From positions 32,001 through 96,000 of IMG/VR virus record IMGVR_UViG_3300025728_000008: a DNA stretch of 64,000 nt. The stretch is one strand, 5' to 3'. The DNA comes from a virus. Both the position numbers and the translations under genes were made by a program. The stretch's first letter is position 1; each line of letters starts with the position of its first letter. Under the pieces are notes generated by a model. That model saw only the letters and a list, made by a program, of their open reading frames with translations, was not told where the DNA came from and did no database searches. Below are positions 31,637 through 52,263 of the stretch, piece by piece.

Positions 31637-32494
31637 TTACTTGTCTGTCCAAAGGTCACAATCACAATCAGCAGGATGTGAGCCACATTTGCATTGTACA
31701 ATATCTTCTGCTTGACCTTCATTTGTGTCATCTGCATTTAAATTTCCTTTTGTATAAGGTAAAGCACCTTCAACACTAATATTGATTCCTTCTTCTGTTG
31801 CTTTTAAATCTTTGCCAATGATGATTAATCCTTCTGTGCTGATTTCTGGATTACGTCCATACATTAAACCAGTTACATAGTTTGCTAATTCTTGAGGATT
31901 TACTTCTTTGATTAATCCACGTTCGATTGAATCAAGATATCCATCATATGGTAATGATACACGAGTGTAATCTTCTTCTTCTAATAACTGATGCCCAACG
32001 AATACTACTGACATTAAATCAATTTCTTCTTCTAATTTGTTATTGCAAGCATATGCATATGAAACTTCTCCGTTTAATACTTGACGTACTACACGTACAT
32101 TGAAATCAATCTGTGGCTTGTTGCCTTTTAAGATATGAATATTTTCAAAGAAATCTACATGACCCTCAAATTCTCCAAGGTCTTTTGGATAGAATGCTGT
32201 TCCTGTTTTAACACGTTCAAGTTTTTTATTTAATTCATGGAAGACTAATGTTCCATCTTCTAATAATTCAATCTCGTAATCTAATCCGTTTTTACCTGCA
32301 AATACATCTCCATTGTATACTGGCGTTTCGTCTAACTCTCCTAAATAATGCAAAGGTACTGCTTCATCGAATGTAACTGTAACATGTGTTTCTTCTTCTG
32401 TTTCAATCGTGTATGTCTTTTTTAGTAAACTTAATTCTACGATATTACCAACTGTATTTTGTTCTTTACTATAAATTAAAATGTCATTAAACAT
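31637..32494 (-). CDS. Hypothetical acidic protein, possible YopX-like N-terminus
   Basis: VYNGDVF resembles the YopX IYEGDIV motif; own promoter. Confidence 0.55.
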   Translation of the reverse strand: MFNDILIYSKEQNTVGNIVELSLLKKTYTIETEEETHVTVTFDEAVPLHYLGELDETPVYNGDVFAGKNGLDYEIELLEDGTLVFHELNKKLERVKTGTAFYPKDLGEFEGHVDFFENIHILKGNKPQIDFNVRVVRQVLNGEVSYAYACNNKLEEEIDLMSVVFVGHQLLEEEDYTRVSLPYDGYLDSIERGLIKEVNPQELANYVTGLMYGRNPEISTEGLIIIGKDLKATEEGINISVEGALPYTKGNLNADDTNEGQAEDIVQCKCGSHPADCDCDLWTDK

Positions 32495-43124: not shown

Positions 43125-43355
43125 ATGACAACAATGACAATTTCTAAAGGTGTATCTTTCAACGAGTTAAAAGGTATCGTGGAGAATATGAATTTAAGAA
43201 ATTTAAATCACATCTTCCCAAGCAAAATCTCAAACGCAAAGTTGAGACACGAAGGAATTATCGAATTAATCGTTGATGAGGAAGGAACAGTATTTGCGGT
43301 AGTTGAAGGTAGTAACGAACCAATCATGTTTCCGCAACTTGCAACAGTTTGTTAA
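43125..43355 (+). CDS. Small hypothetical protein
   Basis: Strong RBS, own promoter, terminator caccc-gaaaa-gggtg after stop. Confidence 0.75.
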   Translation: MTTMTISKGVSFNELKGIVENMNLRNLNHIFPSKISNAKLRHEGIIELIVDEEGTVFAVVEGSNEPIMFPQLATVC

Positions 43356-43410
43356 AGCACCCCGAAAAGGGTGTTTCTTTTTTGTTTGTTAATTTCCATA
43401 TTTTTACACA

Positions 43411-43579
43411 TTTTAGCAGGTAGCTTACATCGCCTAATACTATATTATTAATTTATATATAATATATATTAATAGTGTATATATAATAAATAATAATATA
43501 ATTAATAATATATATATTATATATTAAATAAATAAATATAAATAATATAGTATTAGGCGATTTGAGCTACCTGCTAAAA
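43411..43579. repeat. 39-bp inverted repeat enclosing a 91-bp almost pure A/T core, candidate replication origin
   Basis: 43411-43449 vs 43541-43579, 2 mismatches. Confidence 0.85.
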
Positions 43580-47435: not shown

Positions 47436-47753
47436 ATGGCAAGAAATATAAAGCTTGGTGTTTCGAATGTGGAAGTAATAGGCGGTGACAATCTTGAAGG
47501 AAGATTAAAGAACGTAATGATATCTGGTGTTAGAATGCAGTTAGATGATATCAAGTGTAAAGAAGTCACTGTTATTGCTCGTAAAAGTAATACAGGCTCT
47601 ATTTATATCGGTGGTAAAGATGTTAGTGGAACTAATTTTGGAGTAGAACTGGAAGCAAATGAAAGTTTTACATTTATGATTAGCAACTCAAATCTGATAT
47701 ATATAGATGCATCTGTAAGTGGCGAGGGTGTATCATATGTCACGATTTTCTAG
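47436..47753 (+). CDS. Small beta-rich hypothetical protein
   Basis: RBS GAGGTG; overlaps next gene. Confidence 0.75.
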   Translation: MARNIKLGVSNVEVIGGDNLEGRLKNVMISGVRMQLDDIKCKEVTVIARKSNTGSIYIGGKDVSGTNFGVELEANESFTFMISNSNLIYIDASVSGEGVSYVTIF

Positions 47754-50325
47754 TAATAAGGGTGGTAGTGGTGGTGCTTCTAATCTAAGTGGGTTAAAAG
47801 ACATCATATTTAATCCATTACCAGTTGAAGGAGATGTATTGACTTATGATTCATCTATTTCAAAATGGAAAGCAAAACCACCTAGTAATTCAAATGGTGG
47901 AGTATACTTCTTAGACTTGTCACGTTGGTCTGTAAAGAACAATGGAACAAACGCAGTAGCAACTACTAAAGGTATAAATGATGCTCTTACATGGGCATCT
48001 GGACAAGGTTATATTGAAGTTATTTTACCTAGAGGAACTTATCTTATTGATAAGGATAGTGCGATTGAACCTAAGAGTTTTATGACGTTTAATCTTAACG
48101 GGTCAACATTAAGGAAAGAGACAAATGGATACGAAACATATTCTGTTATTTCATTTAAACGTAATCAAATTTTCTCAAGAGTAACTAATGGAATCATCAA
48201 AGGAGATAAAGACACTCATGATTACACAACAGTTACAGGAACACATGAAGGAGGATTTGGTATTTCTTTAGGAAGCTTTACTCCTATTGCTGATGGTGGA
48301 AATAACATCCGACACATTTGTATTGATAATTTAGATATTTCAGAATGTACAGGAGATGCAATTGTTACAGCTAGTTTATTTGGTCAAATATTCCCAACTC
48401 CTACCAACTTAGCAAACTCATGGGAACAAGGAGCTATCAGTACTGTAGATGGAACTTCTGTTGTAAGTACTTCAAAAATTCGCTCAACATTAAAAATAGA
48501 CATGGCACAACCCGAAATAGTTAAATATGGATACTTTGGATTATATGGTGATGGTTATGGAGGACTAGGTGCAGAAATTTTATGTGACTACTATGATGTA
48601 TTCTTTTATACTTCTGGTGATGTATTTATTTCGTCAGAGTCAAATATTCAGTTCTTTGAAGATATTGATGTTCCTGCAAACGCTAAATGGGCAAAAGTAA
48701 TGTTGCATCAAAGCAATGTCCCAACACCTTCAAAATGTACAATTAACGTAAGAACTGCTTCATTTGGTCAATATATTTACATTGAGAAATGTGACCTTCA
48801 TCATTGTAGAAGACAAGGAATAAGTGTTGGTGGAACAAAAAATCTTTATATTAGAGATAACAATATTCACCACATAAAAGGAACACTTCCAGAAAGTGGA
48901 ATAGATGTTGAGGATGGATACGACATCAACCAATATATCCATATTGAAAATAACAATTTCCATCACAATGACAAATACAACATAATTGTTGTAAATGGTA
49001 AAAACGTATATATTCAAGGAAATACATTATCTAAAACAATGAATATAGGTTATGTTGGATTAGCAGTTAATGGTGGGGCGGATAATGTTATTGTTACACA
49101 TAACACTATTAAACTAAACAAAGTTGTTCTGTCTGGAGAAACGATTTTTGCTAACAACTATGTATATGGAACACAAGTAAACTTGAGTCCTGTTTATGCT
49201 ACACGAAAAATAAAAGTTCTTAATAATATTTTCTACAACATCAAAATGGTAATGGATTCTCCATTTGCTTATGCAGTAGAAGTTGAAAGTTGCAAATTCC
49301 TTAATGATGCTGATAAACTTAATTCTTTAAGTAATACATTACGATTTACACTTGATATTAAACAAGAACCACAAACATTTATTGATTGTATATTTGAAGG
49401 ACAAGATGTAGATTATTTAAGCTATGTTGCTTCAAATGCTACATTTAAACAAGGTTGGGTATTCCAAAATTGTAGATTCAAAAATACAAAAAATCCTAAT
49501 TTCATTGCAGGTAAATATTTAAATTGTGAATTTACTGATTTGACATCTCCAATTAACTTATCTAGAAACAACGATGGAACAAACAGCTTAGAATTAAGAG
49601 GTTGTAAATTTAATTCAACTGACAACAATAACGCAATGTTTACACTTGGAACTATACGTTCATTCGTAATGAAGGATTGTGTAATTGAGAAAACTAGTGG
49701 TTATGTATTTACAATACAAGCTATCTCTAATGAAGTCATTATCAATGACAACATAATTAAAATTACAAATGATGTTCTTCCAAGAGCAGTCATGACTTTT
49801 GAATCTTCATTCACAGGAAACTATATTAGTGTTGATAACAATTTCATCTTAGCAACAAACAGCACTCAAGTAGCTGTAGATAATAAAACAACAAATAATC
49901 CAGTATTTGTAATTAGAAATAACAACTTAAAGAAAACTACAGTCACAAGAAATGGTAAAGAGGTTGTAATTGGAAACATTATTGATGGAGTAATAGACCC
50001 TTATTTCAAATCAGCAAGCGCTCCAACATCATTATATTGGAAAGCAGGTCAAATCATTCAAAATACTTCATTAACATCTGGAGGATATATTGGATGGGTT
50101 TGTACAACAGATGGAACAGCAAACAATCAAGCATGGGTAGCGACTACACCTTACACAGTAAATACTGTAGTTAACGTAAATGGTAAAGTATACAAATGTA
50201 CGGTTGCAGGTACGAGTAGTTCAATTGCTCCAAGTCATACAACTGGAACTGCTTCTGATGGAACTGTAACATGGCAATATGTTGATGTATTAGCTGTGTT
50301 TAAAGCCTATGGATTAATTCAATAA
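47737..50325 (+). CDS. Right-handed parallel beta-helix (pectate-lyase-like) protein with C-terminal carbohydrate-binding module
   Basis: INDAL...VILPRGTYLI, repeated N/C-ladder turns, RRQGISV, GIDVE; C-terminal AW...Y..N.VV..NGKVYKC..AGTS (CBM5/12-like). Confidence 0.8.
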   Translation: MSRFSSNKGGSGGASNLSGLKDIIFNPLPVEGDVLTYDSSISKWKAKPPSNSNGGVYFLDLSRWSVKNNGTNAVATTKGINDALTWASGQGYIEVILPRGTYLIDKDSAIEPKSFMTFNLNGSTLRKETNGYETYSVISFKRNQIFSRVTNGIIKGDKDTHDYTTVTGTHEGGFGISLGSFTPIADGGNNIRHICIDNLDISECTGDAIVTASLFGQIFPTPTNLANSWEQGAISTVDGTSVVSTSKIRSTLKIDMAQPEIVKYGYFGLYGDGYGGLGAEILCDYYDVFFYTSGDVFISSESNIQFFEDIDVPANAKWAKVMLHQSNVPTPSKCTINVRTASFGQYIYIEKCDLHHCRRQGISVGGTKNLYIRDNNIHHIKGTLPESGIDVEDGYDINQYIHIENNNFHHNDKYNIIVVNGKNVYIQGNTLSKTMNIGYVGLAVNGGADNVIVTHNTIKLNKVVLSGETIFANNYVYGTQVNLSPVYATRKIKVLNNIFYNIKMVMDSPFAYAVEVESCKFLNDADKLNSLSNTLRFTLDIKQEPQTFIDCIFEGQDVDYLSYVASNATFKQGWVFQNCRFKNTKNPNFIAGKYLNCEFTDLTSPINLSRNNDGTNSLELRGCKFNSTDNNNAMFTLGTIRSFVMKDCVIEKTSGYVFTIQAISNEVIINDNIIKITNDVLPRAVMTFESSFTGNYISVDNNFILATNSTQVAVDNKTTNNPVFVIRNNNLKKTTVTRNGKEVVIGNIIDGVIDPYFKSASAPTSLYWKAGQIIQNTSLTSGGYIGWVCTTDGTANNQAWVATTPYTVNTVVNVNGKVYKCTVAGTSSSIAPSHTTGTASDGTVTWQYVDVLAVFKAYGLIQ

Positions 50326-50353: not shown

Positions 50354-50526
50354 TTGACAAACATAAAAGATAATGATATACTATGAATATAGTAAGGACA
50401 CCACCTTACACAGTGTACAAATTTTAGTTCGGGATATTGCTACCAACTTTATCCCGAAACATTTTTTAAAAAGTTTTAAATAATCTAAGATATCTAGTTG
50501 ACAAGCATAAAATATTATGATATAAT
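50354..50526 (+). promoter_or_regulatory. Tandem sigmaA promoters upstream of tRNA cluster
   Basis: TTGACA 50354/TATACT 50377 and TTGACA 50498/TATAAT 50521. Confidence 0.8.
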
Positions 50527-50557: not shown

Positions 50558-50632
50558 TGGGAAGTAGCGTAGTGGTAGCGCAACAGGCTGTTAACCTGTA
50601 GGTCGTGGGTTCGAATCCCACCTTCTCAGCCA
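50558..50632 (+). tRNA. tRNA-Asn(GTT)
   Basis: Cloverleaf, acagg-CTGTTAA-cctgt, TTCGAAT T-loop, CCA encoded. Confidence 0.92.
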
Positions 50633-50635
50633 TAC

Positions 50636-50708
50636 GGTTTGGTAGCTCAGTTGGTAGAGCAGATGACTGAACATCATCGTGTCGGTGGTTCGATTCCATC
50701 CCAAACCA
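50636..50708 (+). tRNA. tRNA-Phe(GAA)
   Basis: Cloverleaf, gatga-CTGAACA-tcatc; CCA not encoded. Confidence 0.85.
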
Positions 50709-50714
50709 TAATAT

Positions 50715-50791
50715 TTCGGAGTAGACAAACTGGTAAAGTCGCTTGGCTTTGACCCAAGAGCGTGAAGGTTCGACTCCTTCCTCCGAAGCCA
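50715..50791 (+). tRNA. tRNA-Gln(TTG)
   Basis: Cloverleaf, cttgg-CTTTGAC-ccaag, CCA encoded. Confidence 0.9.
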
Positions 50792-50794
50792 TAT

Positions 50795-50868
50795 GGGAGT
50801 ATAGTTTAGTGGTAAAACAACGGTCTCCAAAACCGTAGTCAGAGGTTCGATTCCTTTTGCTCCTGCCA
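50795..50868 (+). tRNA. tRNA-Trp(CCA)
   Basis: Cloverleaf, acggt-CTCCAAA-accgt, CCA encoded. Confidence 0.92.
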
Positions 50869-50885
50869 TATAAAATTAATATCAC

Positions 50886-50958
50886 GTGGGTATGGGGCAG
50901 TTGGTAGCCTACTGGCTTTGGAAGCTAGATGTCGCAGGTTCGAGTCCTGCTACCCGCA
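50886..50958 (+). tRNA. tRNA-Pro(TGG)
   Basis: Cloverleaf, ctggc-TTTGGAA-gctag; CCA not encoded. Confidence 0.85.
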
Positions 50959-50964
50959 TTTCAT

Positions 50965-51038
50965 GTCTCATTGGTCTAGCTTGGTTAAGATTTCTGGCTT
51001 CCACCCAGACGACATCGGTTCGAATCCGATATGGGACT
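50965..51038 (+). tRNA. tRNA-Gly(TCC)
   Basis: Cloverleaf, tctgg-CTTCCAC-ccaga; CCA not encoded. Confidence 0.82.
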
Positions 51039-51074: not shown

Positions 51075-51659
51075 ATGGAAAAACGCACATTAACAATTAA
51101 AAGAGGTTTAACACGTTTAAATACAATCGAGTCTCAATTATCTGATGTAGTAGCTAAGATTCAAAAGTATGGTGCAATTTCTTCTAAAGAGAAAGTTGAT
51201 TTAGTAGATACAAAAGTTGCTCGTGACAAGAATCATGAATTGGCTCGTGGAGAGATTTCATCATTGTACCAAAAGCATCAAGACTTGTTAGCTGAATATA
51301 GTAAGATTAAATCAGCAATTAATAAGTCCAACCTAGTAACAAATGTTGAAATTGCAGGAAAGGTAATGACACTTGCCGAAGCATTGTTGATTGAAAAAGA
51401 TACACGTTTCAAAATTCAACAATTAACACAAGCATATACTTTCTCAGTATCTCGTGCAGAAGGTCGAGTTGAAACTTACAACGCTAGATTAAATAAAGAA
51501 AACTTGACAAGTGATGAGTTAGAGACAGCTATGGCACAAGTAGAATATTTAGTTGATTCTGCTGAAATTAAAAAACACCAAGAGTTTTTAAGTGAGTTTG
51601 TCGTAGAAATCAATGGTGTCATTGATGAGTCAAACATCGCAACAACGATTGAACTTTAA
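51075..51659 (+). CDS. Coiled-coil protein, DIP1984/DUF6847-like (tentative family)
   Basis: Pattern IK.AI.KSN..T.V.I.G..MTLAEAL, ending ID.SN..T.IEL; helical. Confidence 0.6.
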   Translation: MEKRTLTIKRGLTRLNTIESQLSDVVAKIQKYGAISSKEKVDLVDTKVARDKNHELARGEISSLYQKHQDLLAEYSKIKSAINKSNLVTNVEIAGKVMTLAEALLIEKDTRFKIQQLTQAYTFSVSRAEGRVETYNARLNKENLTSDELETAMAQVEYLVDSAEIKKHQEFLSEFVVEINGVIDESNIATTIEL

Positions 51660-51680
51660 GTAACAACTGATTTTTAGATG

Positions 51681-51962
51681 TATTGCTTGCATAACGATGT
51701 AAATCGACAAAAACAATCAACCCTTAAACTACATAATTTGTAGAAATATGAGAACAAACTACTTAGGATAAAGTGGTCTGTATTATACAGCGATGAATAG
51801 CATTCAGCATATTAGGGTTTAGTGTTTAGCATATTAACTTGATTAGCGGTTTAGGATTTAGTTTCATAGTATTTTTCCAAACCCTAGAATAAAACTTTTC
51901 ACAATAGTGATTGGTGATGATTTCCAAGTCGATTTGATATCTAGGCTGTTATGTAAGCAATA
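51681..51962 (+). ncRNA. Candidate structured ncRNA with internal YAG repeats
   Basis: 15-bp closing stem 51681-51695/51948-51962, second stem 51701-51708/51928-51935, eleven YAG-like units at 7-10 nt spacing; no ORF. Confidence 0.6.
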
Positions 51963-52011
51963 TTATTATTTATAATATTATCTAAGAATCTATATATAGA
52001 GAAGAAAAAAT

Positions 52012-52263
52012 TTGAGAATACAAGGGGATAGAGATATGAAGAATCGTAGAGAGCGTAGAGAAGAAGCACGTAAAAATAAAACAAAGTTTGAACCACAATA
52101 CAAATCAGCATTAAGACGTATTCCTGCACATGTGAAACAAAACGAAGATGGTACATATACAACTGTAGAAGCACAAGAAGTATTTGTCGGTGGCGAACCT
52201 CGCTCCTACAAAGAAGTATTTGAATCTAATTCAGATACAGAAGCAACAGCAACAACTGAATAA
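52012..52263 (+). CDS. Hypothetical protein (likely start MKNRR at 52036)
   Basis: RBS AAGGGG. Confidence 0.65.
   Translation: MRIQGDRDMKNRRERREEARKNKTKFEPQYKSALRRIPAHVKQNEDGTYTTVEAQEVFVGGEPRSYKEVFESNSDTEATATTE

Follow-up and report, generated by a model that had tools for sequence, protein, structure and literature searches.

Several described systems pair a protein with an RNA that carries regularly spaced short motifs, or with an RNA of elaborate fold. In Bacillus subtilis, HutP, an alpha/beta protein that acts as a hexamer built of dimers, reads NAG triplets in the hut terminator RNA. It specifically recognizes the A and G of XAG motifs at a period of 7 (U498, U505, U512), that is, with 4-nt spacers, while the first base is free; the triplets lie in two blocks of three, joined by a 12-17 nt linker and flanking a terminator stem (PMC2425495). 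TRAP, an 11-mer ring, binds 11 (G/U)AG triplets in the trp leader, and such sites have 9-11 triplets with spacers of 2-3 nt. Type III antitoxin RNAs are long tandem repeats of roughly 36 nt, placed upstream of an endoribonuclease gene and behind a terminator. The Ro60 (TROVE) protein is encoded beside Y RNA, a structured RNA whose two ends pair, and GOLLD and ROOL are large, intricately folded RNAs of phages and prophages, of unknown function, that often lie near tRNA genes. Two further families are relevant here, neither of them with a known function: the orphan candidate small RNA RAGATH-27 (Rfam RF03100), and the DIP1984 protein family (Pfam DUF6847, PF20935; NCBIfam NF038048), which has a crystal structure, 3KDQ.

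We compare with these systems a locus in a Bacillus phage, in a window of 64,000 nucleotides (positions 32,001 to 96,000 of IMG/VR record IMGVR_UViG_3300025728_000008; all coordinates below are positions in this window). The original prediction, made from sequence alone, was that a coiled-coil gene is followed by a closed RNA structure carrying eleven regularly spaced YAG units, and that the two form a ribonucleoprotein system. The features it described are all present where it placed them, and we confirm the observation. Its interpretation is supported only in part: the RNA is a genuine structured RNA of no named family, tied to the upstream gene, but oligomerization of the protein on the RNA remains an inference.

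A conserved and doubly pseudoknotted RNA

The module lies directly downstream of six tRNA genes (Asn, Phe, Gln, Trp, Pro, Gly; 50558-51038, + strand) identified by ARAGORN and by Rfam tRNA scores of 58-75 bits. Upstream of these, at 50498-50526 (+), a sigma-70-type promoter (TTGACA, 17 nt, TATAAT with an upstream TG) matches the consensus at 12 of 12 positions. On the strength of this consensus match alone, it probably drives the tRNA array, the protein gene and the RNA as one transcript, and no terminator-like site was found on the + strand between the promoter and 52036. The protein gene occupies 51075-51659 (+), and the RNA, of about 283 nt, occupies 51680-51963 (+), so that its closing stem starts 21-22 nt after the stop codon. 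Between the RNA and the next gene, which encodes a 75-aa protein (phrog_28794), lies a spacer (51963-52035, +) that is almost 100% identical in four phages; it contains TATAAT at 51971-51976, and may be that gene's promoter and leader.

The two ends of the RNA pair to form the closing helix, P1, in which tattgcttgcataac (51681) pairs with gttatgtaagcaata (51948). Counting G-U pairs, the helix extends to 16-17 pairs (51680/81-51696 with 51947-51962/63). The longest long-range helix in the 377-nt spacer is 17 bp, compared with a mean of 11.5 in 300 shuffled sequences, of which 1 reached 17. The 5' strand of P1 (51681-51696) ends in a conserved ACG, and its 3' strand (51947-51962) begins in a conserved GGCUGU motif. 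A second helix, P2, is formed by aaatcgac (51701-51708) and gtcgattt (51928-51935), with ACCAC/GUGGU, ACUGC/GCAGU and AAGGUUGC/GCAACUUU among the forms seen in relatives. The pairing of cctaga (51883-51888), preceded by the conserved UUCCAAACC, with tctagg (51940-51945), which had been suggested as a possible pseudoknot, crosses P2, and so it is a true pseudoknot (P3). In relatives it takes the forms CCUACC/GGUAGG, CCCGA/UCGGG, CCACA/UGUGG and CCUAU/AUAGG. We also find another pseudoknot, PK2, between AAUCA at 51715-51719 and the loop (51918-51922) of hairpin P5 (UUGG...CCAA, 51911-51927); AAUCA/UGAUU here is replaced by GACCA/UGGUC and AACUA/UGGUU in relatives. A further hairpin, P4 (UCAC-AAUA-GUGA, 51899-51910), reads UCUCC-AAUA-GGAGA in the four sister phages, a compensatory change, although it aligns poorly in distant relatives. 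Finally, a variable domain of three small hairpins (51729-51743, 51758-51777 and 51778-51790, together 51729-51790) differs in sequence among the five close phages, yet in each phage it still folds into hairpins (for example, CUACA/UGUAG against AUACA/UGUAU).

In order to assess whether these pairings are maintained, we examined an unfitted MAFFT alignment of 20 homologous RNAs. We find that 82.5% of cells are paired, compared with 35-47% when partners are slid by 1-3 columns; 32 of 43 pairs are changed on both sides, compared with 8-15 in the slid controls; and 0 of 500 shuffles reach the observed score. In P1, 11 of 16 pairs are changed on both sides among the 20 RNAs; in PK2, 92% of cells are paired and 3 of 5 pairs are changed on both sides; and in P5, 87.5% of cells are paired and all 4 pairs are changed on both sides. 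The same holds on 12 relatives, in which P3 shows the strongest covariation of all, with 100% of cells paired and 3 of 5 pairs changed on both sides. A covariance model, R1, built only from 12 metagenomic RNAs and without this clade, hits 51680-51963 over its full length (model positions 1-268 of 268; 69.8 bits, E 1.7e-15). Likewise, nhmmer returns 51683-51960 (E 1e-18) as the only hit in the window. The spacer holding the RNA is near 100% identical in four sister phages, while the flanking genes are 83-90% identical. Phages pW2 and Thrax5 are sister phages of this one. A search of IMG/VR for close relatives, by protein words or by an exact RNA word, returned none beyond the window's own record.

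Several lines of evidence indicate that the RNA is read from the + strand. G-U pairs are invariant or frequent in P1, where the terminal G-U pair is invariant in all 20 RNAs; the + strand folds better than the - strand (-82.2 against -66.3 kcal/mol); and in relatives, hairpins resembling intrinsic terminators, followed by U runs, can be read just after the RNA, although no terminator follows it in this window. We find no plausible open reading frame in the stretch: there are only chance ORFs of 33 codons or fewer inside it, and the one longer ORF (77 aa, - strand) only overlaps its 3' end.

These observations also bear on whether the element might instead act at the level of DNA, as a replication or packaging site or as the remnant of a mobile element. 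A terminal inverted repeat of 15-17 bp does flank about 250 bp, HNH endonuclease genes are inserted nearby in sister phages, and the DNA sequence is very highly conserved. However, pairs are kept through compensatory changes and through G-U pairs, which would be A-C mismatches on the other strand; the helices cross as pseudoknots; the element always has the orientation of the upstream gene; and it is a single copy in the genome. We therefore regard a DNA-level role as very unlikely.

The YAG triplets form what we call a rail. All of those originally listed are at the positions given, but the first (CAG, 51788) lies in the 3' strand of the small hairpin at 51778-51790, so that the single-stranded rail (51795-51870) has ten units rather than eleven. 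These are NAG at 51798, 51805, 51813, 51820 and 51827, UAA at 51835, and NAG again at 51844, 51852, 51859 and 51867; eight of the ten are UAG. The spacing here is 7,8,7,7,8,9,8,7,8, compared with a strict 7,7,7,7,7,9,7,7,7 in metagenomic relatives, with the long step after unit 6 in both. In this window alone the periodicity is weak and not significant (lag-7/8 autocorrelation 0.44, reached by 26 of 200 shuffles), whereas in homologous RNAs it is strong (lag-7 autocorrelation 0.55-0.67, reached by 0 of 200 shuffles). We also considered whether the heptads mimic a T-loop or anticodon loop, and we rejected this reading because the T5-type units (AAAG) do not fit it and no stems flank the units.

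Association with a DIP1984-like protein

The upstream gene encodes a 194-aa protein that matches phrog_1491 (E 5.6e-19), and for which 157 representative clusters were found. Its scores against the DIP1984/DUF6847 family are below the curated cut-offs (16.9 bits against 27 for Pfam; 18.9 against 70 for NCBIfam), and it is about 40 residues longer; 14 of 40 relatives hit PF20935. Its predicted structure is an all-helical bundle (pLDDT 95.9) whose best match in the PDB is 3KDQ (Foldseek E 8.2e-4, probability 1.00, TM 0.52/0.64; the next match has E 0.1). Thus, the protein is a distant relative of this family, with the predicted fold of its solved member. Both phrog_1491 and the RefSeq entry for T5.085 carry the label ‘tail fiber protein’, but the gene lies among tRNA and early or nucleotide-metabolism genes, and the model shows no fibre-like fold. 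The label seems to be inherited annotation.

We next asked whether gene and RNA travel together, since homologous genes lacking a downstream closing stem and periodic repeats would have counted against the original prediction. In every relative examined the two are found together: every homologue with enough downstream DNA is followed by such an RNA or by an equivalent gene-free gap, often inside a tRNA array. Metagenomic homologues at 36-49% identity all carry the RNA, 7-34 nt after the stop codon, except for one that carries it 212 nt after. More distant homologues, in T5 (gene T5.085), S132, DU_PP_V, Pseudomonas M5.1, Bc431v3, QCM8, Xoo-sp15 and a gut phage, are each followed by a gene-free gap of 395-535 nt with the same layout: an end-to-end helix, periodic A-rich units, and a CCNNN/NNNGG helix before GCUG. 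In T5 the RNA would be about 345-357 nt long. Neither the profile nor the covariance model reaches the T5-like and Bastille-like RNAs, however, and the link to them rests on weak protein similarity (tblastn E 1e-4 to 1e-6; phrog_1491) and on a shared layout read by eye; a broad protein alignment was too diverse to be used for finding loci. The T5-type stretch occurs in 451 phage records, and it is annotated in almost none of them. Outside phage DNA the pair is nearly absent, with 1 hit, on a short contig of a metagenome-assembled genome, among the genomes of 185,579 species. Literature searches for DUF6847, DIP1984, T5.085 and T5 non-coding RNAs found nothing relevant.

A predicted fold of two copies of the protein scores 0.71, compared with 0.00 for the best of 3 controls. 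That mark was reached by 20 of 30 proteins solved as pairs of one chain and by 1 of 23 solved as single chains, although these counts hold only roughly because our own alignment was used. The runs agree in at least 95% of contacts, and the partner's pLDDT is at least 90. The result may reflect memory of a solved relative (3KDQ); it supports self-association as a symmetric homodimer, but does not show it. Furthermore, the predicted interface is closed, and is not the head-to-tail contact expected for a ring or a filament.

A putative ribonucleoprotein module

Our preferred interpretation is that 51075-51963 is a two-part phage module that forms an undescribed ribonucleoprotein. In this view the RNA would be made as the tail of the same transcript as the gene, which probably starts at the promoter in front of the tRNA array. 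The RNA would fold into a clamp, with P2 stacking inside P1, and with P3 and PK2 locking the 3' domain onto the 5' strand; the clamp would hold out a stretch of about 75 nt, apparently single-stranded, that contains the ten units. Several copies of the co-encoded protein, perhaps five dimers, would then dock on these units to form a defined particle. Because the module is embedded in tRNA arrays in most phages, we guess that the particle acts on host or phage RNA or tRNA metabolism during infection. We give this interpretation a probability of about 0.6.

Its parts are not equally secure. What our analysis establishes is that the RNA is real, conserved and structured, that it is read from the + strand, that it accompanies this protein family in the relatives examined, and that the number and spacing of its units are conserved. 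The accumulation of a discrete transcript, the binding of protein to RNA, the assembly of a particle and any cellular function are, by contrast, inferred from sequence and structure prediction alone. We consider it almost certain that this is a real structured RNA, and very likely that it forms a functional pair with the protein, although co-location could reflect co-transcription for reasons other than a complex. Whether the protein binds the rail is an even bet, and any particular cellular role is doubtful. The boldest version of the proposal is a new class of phage particle, present from Bacillus phages to T5, in which ten protomers (five dimers) of a DIP1984-like protein assemble at fixed positions on the rail and act on tRNA or RNA metabolism, or against an RNA-targeting host defence, during infection; this version is compatible with our evidence, but it is less likely than not.

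If the pair does form a particle, then it is a widespread and overlooked component of large tRNA-rich phages, including the model phage T5. It would add a protein-dependent RNA to the short list of large structured phage RNAs, it would provide a first functional handle on the DIP1984/DUF6847 family, whose crystal structure has lacked a function since 2009, and it would correct a common mis-annotation. The fixed number and spacing of the units make stoichiometry and recognition directly testable, and T5 makes the genetics easy.

It is also possible, though unlikely, that the element is a cis-acting 3' untranslated structure of the protein's mRNA, such as a processing or stability element within the tRNA operon or an autoregulatory site, with no function of its own as a particle. 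In nearly all relatives it starts 7-34 nt after the stop codon, it lies in a tRNA operon where RNase P and RNase Z cleavage must release the mRNA, and in relatives it is followed by terminator-like hairpins. On the other hand, two pseudoknots, five helices and a rail with a conserved number of units are far more than known stabilizers need, and sequence conservation exceeds that of the coding flanks. In one relative, moreover, a tRNA-like element is nested inside the RNA, which would cut a plain 3' UTR.

Comparison with described systems

The original prediction also raised the possibility of a decoy for a host RNA-binding protein or nuclease, and in Bacillus the obvious candidate is HutP, whose period of 7 resembles that of the rail. 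The RNA contains UAG-N4-UAG-N4-UAG at 51813-51829, which fits the first HutP block, and after a linker of 14 nt, also in the HutP range, it has UAG at 51844, 51852 and 51859; this second block has 5-, 4- and 5-nt spacers, no terminator is present, and the phage genome, to which our search was confined, encodes no HutP. A host decoy is not excluded, although we consider it unlikely. It is made less likely because the gene-RNA pair also occurs in phages of Escherichia coli, Salmonella, Pectobacterium and Pseudomonas, where HutP is not expected. In addition, relatives carry ten units in a 6+4 rather than a 3+3 layout, and neither the elaborate clamp nor the strict linkage to one phage protein is needed for a sponge. 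The HutP site is six triplets in a cis-acting terminator, not a free-standing knotted RNA with ten units, and HutP does not share the helical-bundle fold predicted here.

The two analogies named in the original prediction, TRAP and type III toxin-antitoxin systems, do not hold as memberships. A row of about ten NAG triplets could wrap an oligomer, as in TRAP, but the spacers here are 4-6 nt, the phage genome (the only one searched) contains no TRAP (TrpBP, MtrB) gene, and the protein fold is unrelated. A toxin-antitoxin pair, in which the repeat RNA neutralizes a toxic protein, would likewise place a protein gene next to a repeat-bearing RNA. However, the units here are 7-9 nt rather than about 36 nt, the RNA lies downstream of the gene, the all-helical protein has no match to ToxN-type or any PADLOC family, and the pair is found almost only in phage DNA; we consider this reading very unlikely.

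Similar to Ro60 and Y RNA, the locus combines a protein gene with an adjacent structured RNA whose ends pair, and in the related phage Tsamsa the same genomic slot after the tRNAs holds a DUF2828/vWA protein annotated as RNA-binding. The present phage genome contains no TROVE, DUF2828 or RtcB gene, the only YrlA hits are the tRNA genes, and the protein fold is different. Bacterial DUF6847 genes in Bacillota are also followed by a conserved non-coding stretch, but this element has no heptad rail, and it ends in a G-rich motif instead. In five Bacillota genomes with a DUF6847 gene, RtcB is absent (two genomes), on another contig (two) or more than 1 Mb away (one), so that proximity of the two genes is not supported there.

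Rfam searches at permissive thresholds, on the window, on the RNA alone and on 21 related loci, returned only tRNAs, one skipping-rope RNA and one sub-threshold match to RAGATH-27, and no family matched the RNA of this window. RAGATH-27 has no match in this window even at E up to 10 on the RNA alone, but in a gut-phage relative, L067, it aligns to the first 67 nt of the RNA (30.8 bits against a gathering score of 76.1), starting exactly at the 5' strand of P1 and covering that strand, the junction and the first hairpin. The 86-nt motif treats the P1 strand as unpaired, and lacks the rail, the pseudoknots and the 3' domain; it therefore looks like a catalogued fragment of one branch of the family that we define here. 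Finally, GOLLD and ROOL, neither of which gave an Rfam match, resemble this RNA in being large, intricately folded and found beside tRNA genes in phages, but they are much larger, and they have no dedicated partner gene or heptad rail.

Genomic setting and checks on the sequence

The window comes from a 159-kb phage record whose closest relatives are the Bacillus cereus-group siphoviruses C30-3, vB_BanS-Thrax5 and pW2 of the Joanripponvirinae. On the + strand, a consensus sigma-70-type promoter (50498-50526) is followed by six tRNA genes (50558-51038), a 194-aa ORF (51075-51659), a 377-nt spacer, a 75-aa gene, a YonK-family gene and a metallophosphatase/exonuclease gene. A gene for an 868-aa tail-spike-like protein, consisting of a right-handed beta-helix plus a CBM5/12 module, lies directly before the tRNA promoter (47719-50325).

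We first asked whether the features of the original prediction, namely a long closing helix, further pairings and a row of eleven YAG triplets, are present in the spacer. All of the pairings and triplets are found where they were placed, and the observation is confirmed. The closing helix is 16-17 bp long, counting G-U pairs; in 300 shuffles of the spacer, by comparison, the longest long-range helix averaged 11.5 bp and reached 17 bp once. The spacer folds better than its shuffles on the + strand (-82.2 kcal/mol, z -2.65), and better than the - strand (-66.3 kcal/mol). The first of the eleven YAG triplets lies in a small hairpin, so that the unpaired row has ten units, one of which is UAA. In this window alone, the 7-8 nt periodicity of the row is not significant, since 26 of 200 shuffles reach it.

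Conservation and structure of the RNA

The spacer is almost invariant in Thrax5, pW2, C30-3 and a contig from a public sequencing run (SRR17050893, Logan assembly), although the surrounding DNA is only 83-90% identical. The exception is a variable segment of 60-70 nt, which still folds into small hairpins in each phage. One hairpin changes from UCAC/GUGA to UCUCC/GGAGA. In pW2, C30-3 and the sequencing-run contig, HNH endonuclease genes are inserted inside the tRNA array just upstream of the module (positions 2033-2542, 1888-2367 and 2434-2886 of the extracted loci L002, L003 and L005), whereas the window lacks them, and the tRNA content differs between phages (Gln lost, Arg gained). In phage Tsamsa (NC_023007; locus extract L004, 919-2973), the slot between the tRNA array and the 75-aa/YonK/exonuclease genes holds not the DIP1984-like gene and RNA but a 480-aa DUF2828 + DUF7788 (vWA) protein annotated as ‘RNA-binding protein’, preceded by a 613-nt gene-free gap with no Rfam match.

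Distant relatives of the protein bring the RNA with them. An exhaustive profile search found 157 representative clusters of proteins, nearly all of them about 150-265 aa long. We retrieved contigs for homologues at 36-49% identity from metagenomes, and from one Bacillota metagenome-assembled genome, and every one with enough downstream DNA carries a recognisably homologous RNA 7-34 nt after the stop codon, except for one that carries it 212 nt after. In this relative the extra 212 nt lie between the gene and the RNA (L007:3598-3809), and there follows a further 1.1 kb of gene-free DNA containing two tRNAs and other structured-looking stretches (L007:4110-5264). In another metagenomic relative, a skipping-rope RNA (RF02924, 63.9 bits, above the gathering score) lies 9 nt after the end of the heptad-rail RNA and is followed by tRNA genes (L019:2063-2143). 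A sequence profile of 14 of these homologous RNAs finds window 51683-51960 with E 1e-18 as the only hit in 64 kb, and a covariance model of 12 of them hits 51680-51963 over its full length (69.8 bits, E 1.7e-15).

In order to assess the structure, we scored six helices on a plain MAFFT alignment of 20 RNAs: P1, P2, the hairpins P4 and P5, and two crossing helices. The crossing helices are P3, which is the cctaga/tctagg pairing of the original prediction, and PK2, which joins AAUCA at 51715 to the P5 loop at 51918. Across the alignment 82.5% of cells pair, compared with 35-47% when the partners are slid, and 32 of 43 pairs show changes on both sides, compared with 8-15 in the slid controls. None of 500 shuffles reaches the observed score. 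On the 12 metagenomic RNAs, P3 pairs in every sequence, with three pairs changed on both sides, and P2 is 88-92% paired. P4 is supported only within close relatives, and the alignments are small and partly related. We conclude that this is a doubly pseudoknotted RNA. The invariant and frequent G-U pairs in P1 fit an RNA read from the + strand; given these G-U pairs, the pseudoknots and the fixed orientation, a DNA-level element is unlikely.

In relatives, the row between the variable hairpins and the conserved GACAAAAUCC motif is a clean heptad repeat of consensus GUUNAGU, whose lag-7 autocorrelation of 0.55-0.67 is reached by none of 200 shuffles. A chain search finds ten NAG units with spacing 7,7,7,7,7,9,7,7,7 in relative after relative. 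The window has the same ten units with spacing 7,8,7,7,8,9,8,7,8, including the longer step after unit 6. A conserved number together with a conserved irregularity points, by inference, to a defined set of binding positions rather than to a loose sponge.

Reach of the family and the co-encoded protein

A tblastn search finds weak full-length relatives of the protein in 470 phage records, comprising T5-like Demerecviridae, Bastille-like Herelleviridae, Pseudomonas Otagovirus and a gut phage, and phrog_1491 unites them. In each one examined, the gene is followed by a gene-free gap of 395-535 nt, with an end-to-end helix of 13-21 bp whose sequence differs between lineages, A-rich units (AAAG) at period 7-8, and a CCNNN/NNNGG helix just before a GCUG motif. 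Our profile and covariance models do not reach these RNAs, so that this wider link rests on the protein and on layout read by eye. In T5 the gene is T5.085, labelled ‘tail fiber protein’, and the RNA lies at about 43142-43504, in a stretch that occurs in 451 records. The RNA is not annotated, although the T5 record lists other stable RNAs, among them a 719-nt ‘rnaX, stable RNA with unknown functions’ (T5s08; NC_005859 40848-41566, L062:1-567) about 1.6 kb from the module. The module lies inside or at the end of tRNA arrays in the window, Bc431v3, QCM8, Xoo-sp15 and several metagenomic contigs. In a gut phage scaffold (MT835544; L067:2334-2404), a tRNA-like element (Rfam tRNA 48.7 bits, with a 2-nt anticodon according to ARAGORN) is nested in the variable domain, inside the closing helix of that phage's RNA.

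AlphaFold gives a confident model of the protein (pLDDT 95.9), with long antiparallel helices capped by a small sheet. The only significant PDB match is 3KDQ, an uncharacterised Corynebacterium diphtheriae protein of the DIP1984/DUF6847 family; sequence matches to that family are below the curated cut-offs. A predicted fold of two copies supports a symmetric dimer, with a score of 0.71 against 0.00 for the best of 3 controls. That mark was reached by 20 of 30 proteins solved as pairs of one chain and by 1 of 23 solved as single chains, a calibration that holds only roughly because our own alignment was used. The runs agree in at least 95% of contacts, and the partner's pLDDT is at least 90; but the pass may reflect memory of the solved relative, and it does not show binding. 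Conserved polar residues outside the predicted interface (R10, T13, R14, Q66, D70, N86, N136, N187 and T190) are inferred candidates for RNA contact.

As read by eye only, true DUF6847 genes, present in 15 of 301 Bacillota genomes sampled (L069-L082), are also followed by a conserved non-coding stretch of about 200-240 nt, which contains a T-arm-like hairpin (GGUUCRANYCC) in four of the loci and ends in GAGGGYGGG-N3-5-GGGG, with no heptad rail and no Rfam match. A link to RtcB was not seen in five Bacillota genomes, or in this phage.

Interpretation and comparison with known systems

This is a real, undescribed RNA family with a dedicated protein partner, whereas its expression, its binding by the protein and its function are inferred; the interpretation given in the original prediction, that of a candidate ribonucleoprotein system, is partly supported. 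We commit to a ribonucleoprotein reading, in which the RNA clamp would present ten docking units and dimers of the co-encoded protein would occupy them. As to the cellular role we can offer only a guess: the embedding of the module in tRNA arrays, and the presence in the same slot of Tsamsa of a DUF2828/vWA protein annotated as RNA-binding, suggest a link to RNA or tRNA metabolism or to RNA-directed host defences.

No Rfam family matches the window, even when the RNA alone is searched at E up to 10. In the gut-phage relative, the orphan motif RAGATH-27 aligns below threshold (30.8 against 76.1 bits) to the first 67 nt of the RNA, so that this motif is probably a fragment of one branch of the family. 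TRAP, type III antitoxin RNA and Ro/Y RNA each fail a defining feature. HutP reads exactly this kind of pattern, NAG at period 7 (PMC2425495), and one block of the window fits it; however, the gene-RNA pair also occurs in phages of Gram-negative hosts, and the relatives have a 6+4 layout.
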